From positions 1-27,496 of the forward strand of contig JAZQAZ010000046.1 in the NCBI GenBank assembly GCA_045545475.1: a stretch of DNA of 27,496 bases. The letters run 5' to 3'. The DNA is from Clostridia bacterium (lineage in GTDB: Bacteria > Bacillota > Clostridia > CAKSNL01 > HGM11501). Both the position numbers and the translations under genes were made by a program. Numbering within the stretch: position 1 is the stretch's first letter; each line of letters opens with the position of its first letter. Below the pieces are notes generated by a model, which ran no database searches, was not told the DNA's origin, and saw only the letters and a list, made by a program, of their open reading frames with translations. Below are positions 25,087-27,316 of this stretch, piece after piece.

Positions 25087-25764
25087 TCAACATTCTTCAA
25101 AAACTTCTTTTATTGAAATTTTTTCTATATGTTTCAAATCTTTAAGAGCGGACCATTCTAGACTCTTTTCTGTAAAGCCAGCCCTCTCCCATCTCTTGTA
25201 CCTTGCCAGATAATCAAATGTATCATTACTTATTTTTTTAATATTTATAATTTCTGTATTTTCAAATACACCTACAAATCCATAACCATACACGCCCTCG
25301 CTATTCCGAAAAAAACCGAGAACATAGCAATTGCCTGTATGTTCATCAAATTCGAGTTCTTCAAGAAACATATCTTCTCTTTCTCCAAACAATACCTTTG
25401 CAACAGAAAAATCCGTTGTATTATAAACAGTAAGTTGTGTTCTTGTTGAATAAACAGTTTTTTCTATATTGTAAAAATAATTACCATCCGGAGAAAAGGC
25501 ATACCCCTGATCCTGCGCACCTATTCCTGTTATACTGATTTTCTTAACGAGTTCTAATTTTTCCAAGTCATATACTGCCAGTTTTCCTTCTGTAGATTTA
25601 ACAACAACGACATTTGATCCGGGTTTCAGAGCTGCATTATAACCATAAGCAATATCTTTAAATTTCGCTAACTCATTGTCATTCTTATCATAAACATATA
25701 CGGTTCCGCCGTTACATCCAATTTTATATGATTCATTTTCGTAAAATCCCCAAAATTTTTTCAT
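25087..25764 (-). CDS. Hypothetical protein with beta-propeller-like repeats
   Basis: VYVYD, LAVYDLE, AFSPDGNYFY, LTVYNT and FDEHTG blade-like motifs. An AGGAGG RBS at 25776-25771 favours ATG 25764 or 25767. Confidence 0.7.
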   Translation of the reverse strand: MKKFWGFYENESYKIGCNGGTVYVYDKNDNELAKFKDIAYGYNAALKPGSNVVVVKSTEGKLAVYDLEKLELVKKISITGIGAQDQGYAFSPDGNYFYNIEKTVYSTRTQLTVYNTTDFSVAKVLFGEREDMFLEELEFDEHTGNCYVLGFFRNSEGVYGYGFVGVFENTEIINIKKISNDTFDYLARYKRWERAGFTEKSLEWSALKDLKHIEKISIKEVFEEC

Positions 25765-25786
25765 CATTTTCCTCCTTCCGACGATA

Positions 25787-25825
25787 TCAACAATCTTTAT
25801 ATAAAGACTATATAATCCAGATACC
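25787..25825. repeat. 39-bp direct repeat, copy A
   Basis: 32/39 identical to 27052-27090; the first 16 bp match 26376-26391 at 15/16. Confidence 0.8.
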
Positions 25826-25832
25826 AAGCATC

Positions 25833-25885
25833 AAAGCCTCCCTTGCCTAAAGGGAGGTGTCAGTCGCAGACTGACGGAGGGATTC
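25833..25885. repeat. Double-hairpin REP-like repeat, left of the DUF559 gene
   Basis: AAAG CCTCCCT-TGCCTAA-AGGGAGG T GTCAGTC-GCA-GACTGAC GGAGGGATTC; inverted relative to the copies at 26233-26359. Confidence 0.9.
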
Positions 25886-26230
25886 CTTTACAGCAATATC
25901 TATATATTGACAAATCCCCTCAAAATTTTTATTCACTTCGTTATTGGGGATTCTGATAACAGTTAAATTTCGTTGTTCAATTCTTTCTGTCCTGATTTTA
26001 TCTTTTAGCAAACCCTTTTCTTCATAGTGTTGCGAGCCATCAAGTTCTATAATTAACCTTACGCTATGGCAATAAAAATCTACTATGTAATTATCAATTA
26101 CTTTTTGTCTTAAAAATCTAACGGGATAACTTTTCAAAAAATCATACCAAAGATGTCGCTCTTCTTTTGTCATATTCTTACGCAATGCTCTTGCATTAGT
26201 TGTTAATTCTGTGTTATGTTTTCTTTCCAT
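25847..26230 (-). CDS. DUF559 (Vsr-like) endonuclease domain protein
   Basis: ARALRKNMTKEERHLW, FLRQKVIDNYIVDFYC, IIELDGSQH, DKIRT, VIRIPN are typical DUF559 motifs. The start is placed at ATG 26230 behind GGAGGG. Confidence 0.9.
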   Translation of the reverse strand: MERKHNTELTTNARALRKNMTKEERHLWYDFLKSYPVRFLRQKVIDNYIVDFYCHSVRLIIELDGSQHYEEKGLLKDKIRTERIEQRNLTVIRIPNNEVNKNFEGICQYIDIAVKESLRQSATDTSL

Positions 26231-26232
26231 GT

Positions 26233-26359
26233 ATCCCTCCACCTATCAGCGAATTTTGCTTTTGCAAAATATCGCCTAAAGGTCCCCCTCCGAAATCCTC
26301 CCCCCGTCTGCGACGGTCCCCCCTCCTTTAGGCAAGGAGGGCTTTGCAAGGGAGGCTTT
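26233..26359. repeat. Two nested double-hairpin repeats, right of the DUF559 gene
   Basis: The outer unit is 26233-26291 plus 26346-26359. The inner complete unit is 26293-26345 (CCGTC-TGC-GACGG ... CCCTCCT-TTAGGCA-AGGAGGG CTTT). Confidence 0.85.
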
Positions 26360-26364
26360 TTACT

Positions 26365-26381
26365 TTCGTCAAAATTCGACA
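26365..26381 (-). promoter_or_regulatory. Tandem Spo0A-box-like heptamers
   Basis: The minus strand reads TGTCGAA-TTT-TGACGAA, two matches to TGNCGAA. Confidence 0.5.
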
Positions 26382-26421
26382 ATCTTTATATGATTTTGTC
26401 AAGTTAGGGACAAAAAAAGAT

Positions 26422-26835
26422 TTAGTGACCTCTTAAATCCAAATAATAGAATGGTGCACTTTTAGCATACACTAACACATAATATTTTTTTGAGTTATCT
26501 GTAACATATTTTGAAAATTGTCTGTTTGTTTTGGTTTCAAAGTGTAATTCTTCAAAAGGTAAAACTTCGTGTGCATCCGGAAATTTGTCCTTCACAATTT
26601 CTTTTTGATATTCTGTTTCAATTAAAGCAGTTACTATCAAATATGTATGATCACCATTCGCAACATTGCCACAACCGTTTAATGTATCTATCATACTAAT
26701 ATCATCAACTTCAGCAATAACTTTTTCAACCTCTATCTTATATTGTTCGCACGCAAAATCATCAACCCAATATGGTATAAACAAACATATAATAATAACT
26801 AATGCTATTAAACCCCAAATGATTATTTTCTTCAA
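26422..26835 (-). CDS. Hypothetical membrane-anchored or exported protein
   Basis: TTG start at 26835 behind AAAGGAAGTG. MKKIIIWGLIALVIIICLFIPYW is a signal/anchor segment. The ORF-track extension to 26949 runs through a repeat. Confidence 0.75.
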   Translation of the reverse strand: MKKIIIWGLIALVIIICLFIPYWVDDFACEQYKIEVEKVIAEVDDISMIDTLNGCGNVANGDHTYLIVTALIETEYQKEIVKDKFPDAHEVLPFEELHFETKTNRQFSKYVTDNSKKYYVLVYAKSAPFYYLDLRGH

Positions 26836-26851
26836 ACTATCACTTCCTTTC

Positions 26852-27034
26852 AAGGCTTCTCCTTGAGGAGAGGCCCCGCCTATCAGCGATTTTCGGTTTT
26901 GCATAGAAAATCGCCCAAAGGCGGTGGTGAGGTGTAGATTGCGTAGCAATCGTTATTCTTTTCCACCTCATCCGAGTTTCAGCAAAATCTGCCTGATTTT
27001 GCCTACACCCCCTTCCCCTCAAGGGGAAGGCTTT
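26852..27034. repeat. Gene-less paired (REPIN-like) palindromic element
   Basis: Left AAGGCTTCTCC-TTGA-GGAGAGG...GGTGAGGTG (26852-26934) and right CACCTCATCC...CCTTCCCC-TCAA-GGGGAAGGCTTT (26964-27034) are inverted partners. A central GATTGC-GTA-GCAATC hairpin lies at 26937-26951. Confidence 0.85.
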
Positions 27035-27040
27035 TTTGAA

Positions 27041-27090
27041 TTCGACTTTTTTCGACAATCTTACTATAAAGACTGTATAATCTGGATGCC
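27041..27090. repeat. 39-bp direct repeat copy B, with adjacent tandem 0A-like heptamers
   Basis: 27052-27090 matches 25787-25825; the minus strand at 27057-27041 reads TGTCGAA-AAA-AGTCGAA. Confidence 0.75.
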
Positions 27091-27236
27091 GATATTTTTT
27101 AATGAGTCTTCATGTCGAGTTGGAACCAAAAAGAGATTCTATTAACGAAAGAATTGAATCGGCATTCTCTGCTGAAACAACAACATAATTCAGATGCACT
27201 TTATTTCAGGCTACAATTAACCCATTATAATTCTAT

Positions 27237-27316
27237 ATTATAGCACATCTGGTTTCAAATTTCAATATTTGGAAAAATAGATTTCTATGTTTCGAGCCGA
27301 GATTTCTACGTTTTGA
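27237..27316 (-). promoter_or_regulatory. Sigma-A promoter with three 17-bp direct repeats (putative activator sites)
   Basis: TTGAAA (27265-27260), 17 bp, TGcTATAAT (-10 at 27242-27237). The repeats start at 27257, 27279 and 27300 (AGATTTCTAYGTTTYGA-like). Confidence 0.65.

Follow-up and report, generated by a model that had tools for sequence, protein, structure and literature searches.

A DUF559 nuclease gene between inverted triplex-type repeat units: a candidate selfish nuclease-repeat cassette in a Clostridia genome

A lone DUF559 gene and the repeats around it

The window analysed here is the whole of a 27,496-nt contig (C46; JAZQAZ010000046.1) from a draft Clostridia genome of 2.74 Mb, which has a G+C content of 41% and is 95% complete. 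Gut MAGs that carry the label Clostridia or Oscillospiraceae are its nearest relatives in the public collection. On its 5' side the locus has chromosomal neighbours, namely U32 peptidase, NUDIX, MutS2, LOG and PHP genes, followed by small ORFs without family matches, and no integrase or transposase was found near the cassette among the family matches of the neighbouring ORFs. Between 25833 and 26359, the sole ORF of at least 100 amino acids is a DUF559 gene at 25847-26230 on the minus strand, which encodes 127 residues from an ATG start codon, or 131 residues from an alternative GTG start at 26242. The features of the locus are listed below, where R1 denotes a covariance model of the repeat units that is described further on.

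25787-25828, plus strand: P module, a promoter-like low-copy repeat (TCAACA-18-TATAAT, 10/12), with the left copy of a 13-nt direct repeat
25833-25884, plus strand: left unit, at the 3' end of the gene (R1 64.7 bits, E 4.3e-14; fold z -3.6)
25847-26230, minus strand: DUF559 (Vsr-like PD-(D/E)xK) nuclease gene, 127 aa (Pfam PF04480)
26233-26291, minus strand: first part of the outer unit (a), at the 5' end of the gene (98% over 60 nt to contig C24, 27141-27200, where it is whole)
26294-26344, minus strand: unit (b), nested in the terminal loop of unit (a) (R1 53.1 bits, E 7.1e-11)
26346-26359, minus strand: rest of the terminal hairpin of unit (a), severed by the nested unit (b) (100% complementary to 25833-25846)
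26360-26391, no strand assigned: P module, 3' half only, containing the right-hand 13-nt direct repeat (end of the joint in runs X1 and X3)
26858-27034, no strand assigned: gene-less doublet: two units of a related subfamily, inverted to each other (parsed by eye; below R1 detection at E <= 1)
27052-27095, plus strand: second P module copy (TCGACA-18-TATAAT, 11/12)

DUF559 is a large family of small nucleases. The cassette protein matches the family profile well above threshold (PF04480, E 1.6e-28; 99.2 bits against a cut-off of 20.6), and a sequence search matched it to the solved structure 3HRL in the PDB (E 2.3e-10), which suggests a Vsr-like fold. It is 40% identical to E. coli YcjD and scores 70.6 bits with the NCBIfam YcjD model, below the equivalog cut-off of 218. 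Five residues (D51, E62, D64, Q67 and H68) are invariant among 76 aligned DUF559 proteins and align with 3HRL, and we regard these as the putative catalytic residues. The protein also bears a weak likeness to the homing endonuclease I-Bth0305I (3R3P, E 0.15). Matches returned by PADLOC (methyl-directed REase, DpdF and homing endonuclease; E 1e-8 to 4e-4) were set aside as reflecting a shared nuclease core and not a defence system. The gene is single in the genome as far as a six-frame PF04480 search finds, a search that has false negatives, as the control E. coli genome gave no match though ycjD of K-12 is annotated as DUF559.

Anatomy of the cassette's units

The left unit is made up of a pyrimidine arm (25837-25844), a loop (25845-25849), a purine arm (25850-25857), an inner hairpin (25859-25875) and a mirror purine box (25876-25883). 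Its terminal hairpin is CCTCCCTT / AAGGGAGG with the loop GCCTA, its inner hairpin is GTCAGTC-GCA-GACTGAC, and its box is GGAGGGAT. This unit encodes the final ~12 codons of the gene, the stop codon (25847-25849) falling within the unit's loop. An inverted copy on the right, at 26294-26345, has CCGTC-TGC-GACGG as its inner hairpin, CCCTCCTT / AAGGAGGG as its terminal hairpin, and the same terminal loop as the left unit. This copy, unit (b), interrupts unit (a), which consists of 26233-26291 plus 26346-26359, abuts the start codon, and combines a long inner hairpin with a terminal arm that is cut short; its purine box (26233-26240) places GGAGGG a few bases 5' of the ATG. The nested architecture recurs upstream of DUF559 genes at three loci (L009, L016 and L018). 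A repeat search returned two pairs of inverted arms, 25832-25853 with 26325-26346 (22 nt, 91%) and 25833-25846 with 26346-26359 (14 nt, 100%).

A chance origin of the two copies is excluded by their covariance-model scores (64.7 and 53.1 bits), which correspond to E values of 4e-14 and 7e-11 over the whole 2.74-Mb genome. In folding energies, which cover Watson-Crick pairs only, the left 68 nt reach -15.4 kcal/mol against -7.6 +/- 2.2 for shuffled sequences (z -3.6 on the plus strand and -3.4 on the minus strand), and the right 94 nt fold more weakly (z -1.3 and -1.7). An Rfam scan of 25600-27300 at E <= 1 returned a lone chance-level sRNA match (E 0.34) and no known RNA family. Because a terminator scan flagged nothing at the cassette ends, its sole terminator-like hairpin being at 27011-27030, a reading of the units as pure terminators is weak.

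A preliminary description of this DNA had proposed that a lone DUF559 gene lies at 25833-26359 between inverted double-hairpin repeats of ~53 bp, and the ORF scan, the Pfam match and the R1 scores bear this out. The inverted bracket that it drew stands, but the right copy that it paired with the left unit is the nested unit (b), and it is the outer unit (a) that abuts the start codon. Likewise, the two hairpins that it assigned to each unit are present, but the description was incomplete in that it overlooked a third element, the purine box. The stem differences that it took for compensatory changes separate unit subfamilies and did not arise in place.

Gain or loss of the cassette between strains

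In assembled contigs of two metagenome studies (runs X1 and X3), 25789 is followed directly by 26379, with 589 bp passed over. On its long side, this joint matches the 246-aa gene at 97-99%; its short side is 34-37 nt, 13 of which fit either side. In X3, read depth is 0-1 over the gene body against ~8 on both flanks, and the contigs of the 175-aa gene begin where the joint contig ends. In these two runs the empty allele is without gene and units alike, and in run X2 there is a third allele, whose sequence departs immediately past 25802. The cassette has been gained or lost between close strains, and the event may have been a deletion.

The joint lies in a 13-nt direct repeat, ACAATCTTTATAT, whose copies at 25790-25802 and 26379-26391 are set apart from the hairpin units by 30 nt on the left and 19 nt on the right and do not coincide with the hairpin tips. 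Given the position of the joint in this core, the cassette and two half-modules were gained or lost as a block by recombination there. The copies belong to P modules, which are also found beside the cassettes of close relatives and whose 5' half is present in 2-4 copies in the genome. Because the strain-level joint lies in the P core and the X2 allele diverges behind it, the core looks like a recombination hot spot or an att-like site.

P modules flank both the cassette and gene-less doublets, and are also seen on contig C24 at 27010-27036 and 27256-27280; they share a common core (ATATAAAGATTGT on the gene strand) and have at least three different 5' halves. On the minus strand at 25805-25834, a promoter-like TTGATG-16-TATAGT (9/12), formed by the outer end of the 3' unit and the P half-module, is directed towards the 246-aa gene. 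The cassette may carry an outward promoter.

A DNA search of 40 relatives for a syntenic empty site yielded no match to the neighbouring genes, and repeat modules only. Other short joints, among them some that run backwards (sides of 20-31 nt, likeness threshold 90), were considered as circles or tandem copies, and look like repeat mosaics from other loci or organisms. Cassettes that are 88-96% identical lie in unrelated flanks; this is the case for five of the ten pairs at 90% or above.

The units have a three-part, triplex-type layout

We parsed 102 distinct units from 80 homologous loci and built R1 from 69 of them. The structure of R1 was set by hand; an automatic column-pair search on the unit alignment gave a long-range fold that we judged spurious. 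Read along the purine-rich strand, a unit opens with a pyrimidine arm (CCTCCCTT and its variants), which a loop separates from the purine arm complementary to it; next come an inner hairpin, which varies, and the purine box. The terminal loop begins with G and ends with A, and reads GCCTA in 54 of the 102 units. In the alignment, which is fitted to the model, 99.5% of the terminal-stem cells are paired, with both-side changes at four of the eight pairs. The inner loops are C-GNA-G triloops on the purine-rich strand in 54/102 units, a motif that forms an unusually stable DNA mini-hairpin.

The purine box is a mirror of the purine arm, and neither a direct nor an inverted copy of it. Compared in mirror register, arm and box are 83% identical and 95% triad-compatible (G.G-C, A.A-T, T.A-T), against 39% and 41%, respectively, in direct register; the mirror comparison is anchored at the 3' end of the unit, anchoring at the inner hairpin being blurred by variable linkers. 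Arm and box also co-vary: across 22 distinct types, the observed match was reached in one of 5000 partner permutations. Two other structural readings were rejected, a G-quadruplex because some subfamilies are without four G tracts, and Watson-Crick pairing between the box and the 5' arm because the box co-varies as a mirror and not as a direct copy.

BoxC, PIT and TMECO repeats, first catalogued in the 1990s, occur in hundreds of genomes and are tied to local genome instability. They are the class II purine-motif intrastrand-triplex repeats of Holder et al. (2015, PMC4666352), where the TMECO consensus is given as CCCTCNCCC N3-6 GGGNGAGGG N3 GGGNGAGGG, 34-37 nt long. The units described here show this class II layout, with the GNA-loop hairpin as the connector and the triplex itself a prediction from sequence. 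As in BoxC/PIT/TMECO, a pyrimidine arm, a loop, a purine arm, a second loop and a mirror purine box follow in that order, and, going by the published description of those repeats, both kinds are intergenic, lie in both orientations, often form inverted pairs of two types, and are found where the genome varies locally. Differences are that the arms here are CCTCCCTT/AAGGGAGG-like and not CCCTCNCCC/GGGNGAGGG, so that the TMECO consensus does not fit; that the second loop is a hairpin of 13-40 nt and not 3 nt; that the unit is 47-60 nt long and not 34-37 nt; and that the terminal loop is conserved, while the loops of TMECO are described as varying more than the stems. By these features, we assign the units to the same kind of repeat as BoxC/PIT/TMECO, but not to the same family. 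Holder et al. report no stable triplex in duplex DNA or in vivo, and found no mobile-element link for TMECO-type repeats; their main text makes no mention of DUF559, ycjD or any endonuclease, and names no protein that makes, moves or reads these repeats (PMC4666352).

Units on either side of the gene, and hence in either orientation relative to transcription, retain their strand-specific features, and purine-motif triplexes do not form in RNA (PMC4666352). Taken together, these two points indicate that selection on the units acts at the level of DNA. Units nested in the terminal loops of other units recur at several loci, which suggests that the terminal loop is an entry point for other units.

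Inverted units bracket DUF559 genes across homologous loci

R1 identified 202 units in the 80 loci. These were concentrated beside the genes, with 155 units in 44.6 kb there against 47 in 194.6 kb of outer flank; R1 was trained on units from the same 80 loci, which affects detection but not this positional contrast. A forward unit was present within 80 nt upstream of the start codon at 69 of the 78 judgeable loci (median gap 5 nt), an inverted unit at the 3' end of the gene at 64 of 77, and both at 59 of 75. Genes of this DUF559 clade are, as a rule, bracketed by inverted units, and the window contains, at 25833-26359, one copy of a widespread small cassette in which an intact DUF559 gene lies between such units. 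The fit between gene and units is close: the purine box (GGAGGG) of the 5' unit ends no more than 9 nt before the start codon at 45/69 loci, and the stop codon lies inside the 3' unit at 49/65. By their sequence, the units provide the gene with its ribosome-binding site and its stop codon. The gene itself is intact at 75 of 78 homologous loci.

We also looked at more distant DUF559 genes, the family being present in only eight of a sample of 301 phylum genomes. With a strict generic finder, class II-type units were detected within ~150 nt at 6 of 15 further loci (3 of 7 genomes), one of these six distant Bacillota loci having near-TMECO arms. In another Bacillota family, a DUF559 gene is flanked by tandem arrays of 4-5 near-identical units of ~60 nt (locus L118 in genome G232, 1220-1480 and 1790-2130).

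In E. coli K-12, TMECO no. 9, at its published position (1,351,239-1,351,204), is 168 bp downstream of ycjD on the same strand. By chance, a given gene would have a TMECO no more than 200 bp from one of its ends ~0.2% of the time, a post hoc estimate from 23 sites in 4.64 Mb. The last codons of ycjD run into a CCCTCTCCC arm, and the DUF559 gene of a high-GC Bacillota genome ends likewise. About 40 nt of the ycjD 3' end are duplicated ~100 nt downstream, before TMECO no. 9 (locus L114, 11230-11420, minus strand); the duplicate looks like what is left of a second copy, or like the trace of a rearrangement at the repeat.

The supply of a ribosome-binding site and of outward-facing hairpins by the units is also what one might see if the protein were a host repair nuclease, either a solitary Vsr-type mismatch endonuclease or a remover of replication-blocking folded repeats, to which the units would be incidental or regulatory. 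The one functional lead for DUF559 found in the literature searched is of this sort, since VsrA of Caulobacter, a protein with a DUF559 domain, is described as functionally tied to a solitary cytosine methyltransferase, a methylation-linked role of the Vsr type (PMC12907096). However, a search of this genome (95% complete) for a C5 cytosine methyltransferase (PF00145) found none; among relatives the gene has a patchy distribution and its surroundings are unrelated; and the strand-specific features of the units persist whichever way the units are oriented relative to transcription. A regulator at the RNA level is further disfavoured by the inability of purine-motif triplexes to form in RNA. We therefore consider a host repair role improbable.

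Units without a gene, and their co-occurrence with DUF559

R1 found six strong units in this genome, including a gene-less doublet on contig C24, and further weak or divergent units can be read by eye. At 16700-16860 on contig C40, an intergenic unit of the GCTCCC subfamily has another unit inside its purine arm or loop; this is the genome's second case of nesting. The gene-less doublet within the window, at 26858-27034, has a small GTA-loop hairpin between its two units, has 80-82% matches in three genomes of the same genus, and precedes or overlaps the start of a 175-aa ORF. Translation from the listed start of this ORF, at 26949, would run through repeat DNA, which makes a later start codon the more likely one.

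Over 60 nt, the C24 doublet is 98% identical to the cassette, and by eye it keeps ~20 nt that resemble the last codons of the DUF559 gene. Gene-less doublets with the layout of the cassette, as at C24 and 26858-27034, could be the targets of a homing-type selfish gene, whose nuclease would cut them and whose filled copy would template the repair, so that the gene lands in the middle of its target. The near identity of the C24 doublet to the cassette fits such a scheme, as do the weak likeness of the protein to I-Bth0305I (E 0.15) and the match to the PADLOC homing-endonuclease model (E 4e-4). The apparent gene remnant at C24 makes that doublet more likely a deletion derivative than a virgin target, though, and the empty allele of X1 and X3 is without units as well as without the gene. 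On this evidence homing seems to us decidedly unlikely.

We next consider how units and gene are distributed among genomes, with the proviso that unit counts in large genome searches are lower bounds, only part of the candidates having been scored. Of 41 relatives, 14 had units and 10 had DUF559; nine had both, five had units only and one had only a weak gene match. The five relatives with units only (G001, G005, G006, G012 and G026) are 59, 92, 76, 65 and 100% complete, respectively, and G005 has 8-13 units with no DUF559 gene found. Copy numbers ranged from 1 to 64 units in the relatives searched. The highest, 36-64 depending on the run, was in G008, which has two DUF559 genes; its amplified units form inverted doublets and share a genome-specific terminal loop with the units that flank one of the two genes.

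In an even class-level sample of 150 genomes, each at least 90% complete and one of them unscored, 15 genomes from eight families had both units and gene, six had units only, two had the gene only, and 127 had neither. Units were therefore present in 15 of 17 gene-bearing genomes and in 6 of 133 gene-less ones, counts in which related genomes are non-independent samples. As R1 derives from gene-flanking units, ~2 units per gene-bearing genome are expected by construction; extra units were present in 11 of the 15. An order-level set of eight genomes added nothing to the co-occurrence.

Such a distribution could also be thought to reflect self-standing, BoxC-like structural repeats that are propagated by host replication or repair, with the DUF559 gene a passenger, or a favoured landing place, and with no action of the protein on the units. 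The six class genomes that have units with no DUF559 found, the nesting of units in one another's loops without a gene, and the absence of a mobile-element link in the account of Holder et al. (PMC4666352) are all in keeping with this, and the gain or loss that we observed runs through flanking direct repeats and needs no dedicated enzyme. A passenger would not, however, be expected to sit in a fixed register with the units, through its ribosome-binding site and stop codon, at most of 75 loci, nor to be intact at 75 of 78. The contrast between gene-bearing and gene-less genomes (15/17 against 6/133) and the similar association in E. coli and in a high-GC Bacillota genome also speak against it. 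We judge the passenger explanation unlikely.

Comparison with known mobile systems

In RAYT (TnpA-REP) systems, the gene of an HUH tyrosine transposase is flanked by inverted REPs. The preliminary description had likened the present locus to these systems, and the likeness holds up in part. Here too a single-copy enzyme gene lies between inverted short hairpin repeats, which are also found elsewhere alone or as doublets, and gene and repeats co-occur across genomes. That description had further suggested looking for inverted units in the flanks of DUF559 homologues and for a relation between repeats and gene presence, and both were found, in the 59 of 75 loci with both units and in the class-level counts. 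The unit type of G008 and the presence or absence of the cassette between strains fit the analogy as well. Where the analogy fails is in the enzyme: the REP/RAYT enzyme is an HUH (Y1) transposase, whereas the only gene of the cassette encodes a DUF559 protein, predicted to be a Vsr-like PD-(D/E)xK hydrolase and not a strand-transferase. The units, moreover, have a triplex-type three-part layout, and the ends of the indel fall beyond the hairpins, by 30 and 19 nt. Against the tens to hundreds of copies typical of REPs, the counts made here are lower (six strong units in this genome, 1-64 per genome searched), those from the larger searches being lower bounds.

MITEs and mobile insertion cassettes likewise share inverted ends, gene-less miniature derivatives and strain-level presence or absence with the cassette, which differs from MITEs in being without a transposase, and in having an indel that is bounded by a 13-nt repeat 19-30 nt outside its ends, with no end duplication. 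I-Bth0305I (PDB 3R3P) is reportedly a small homing endonuclease of the Vsr fold that is borne by selfish DNA. Unlike that gene, the one described here lies between repeats and not inside a host gene, and no intron or intein is involved. A full-text literature search, judged by titles and abstract openings, returned no link between DUF559 and these repeats.

A possible nuclease-repeat cassette

The explanation that we favour, and hold to be probable by a modest measure, is that nuclease and repeats here form a cassette, selfish or semi-domesticated, in which the enzyme acts on units that have folded, this action of the nuclease being what we infer. When single-stranded, a unit would fold into a pyrimidine/purine hairpin, with the 3' purine box laid along it in mirror register and the GNA-loop hairpin serving as connector. 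The nuclease would recognise and nick such folded units, for example at the replication fork, and repair or recombination templated by other copies would spread the units, the doublets and the cassette. The spread would resemble that of REPs by RAYTs, but would be driven by a hydrolytic nuclease; the event seen here used the 13-nt repeat in the flanking P modules. We count several points against this explanation. A PD-(D/E)xK nuclease is by itself incapable of strand transfer, strong units number only six in this genome, two gene-bearing genomes of the class sample showed no units and six gene-less ones did, the empty-site joint lies outside the hairpins and has just 34-37 nt behind it on its short side, by the strict finder only 6 of 15 distant loci in the phylum have units within ~150 nt, and Holder et al. 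saw no stable triplex in duplex DNA or in vivo.

New here are the three-part unit, the general bracket, the co-occurrence of units and gene, the gene-less doublets, the joint between 25789 and 26379, and the position of TMECO no. 9 beside ycjD. Judging by the layout of the cassette, a class of bacterial repeats that has long lacked an explanation may have its partner enzyme in this nuclease. In its widest form, which we offer tentatively and find possible but rather doubtful, the proposal is that DUF559 is the missing partner of BoxC/PIT/TMECO repeats, a structure-specific nuclease that would read the single-stranded triplex-hairpin and spread both the repeats and its own cassette.

The register-exact and phylogenetically repeated pairing gives DUF559 and the BoxC-type repeats each a testable function, in a system small enough for a simple assay with a 127-aa protein and oligonucleotides of ~50 nt. 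If the proposal is true, these cassettes would be a second widespread class of REP/RAYT-like replicators in bacteria, one in which a hydrolytic nuclease takes the place of the transposase. If the nuclease does act on folded DNA, it would be a natural enzyme specific for non-B DNA, and would represent a new route by which bacterial repeats spread.
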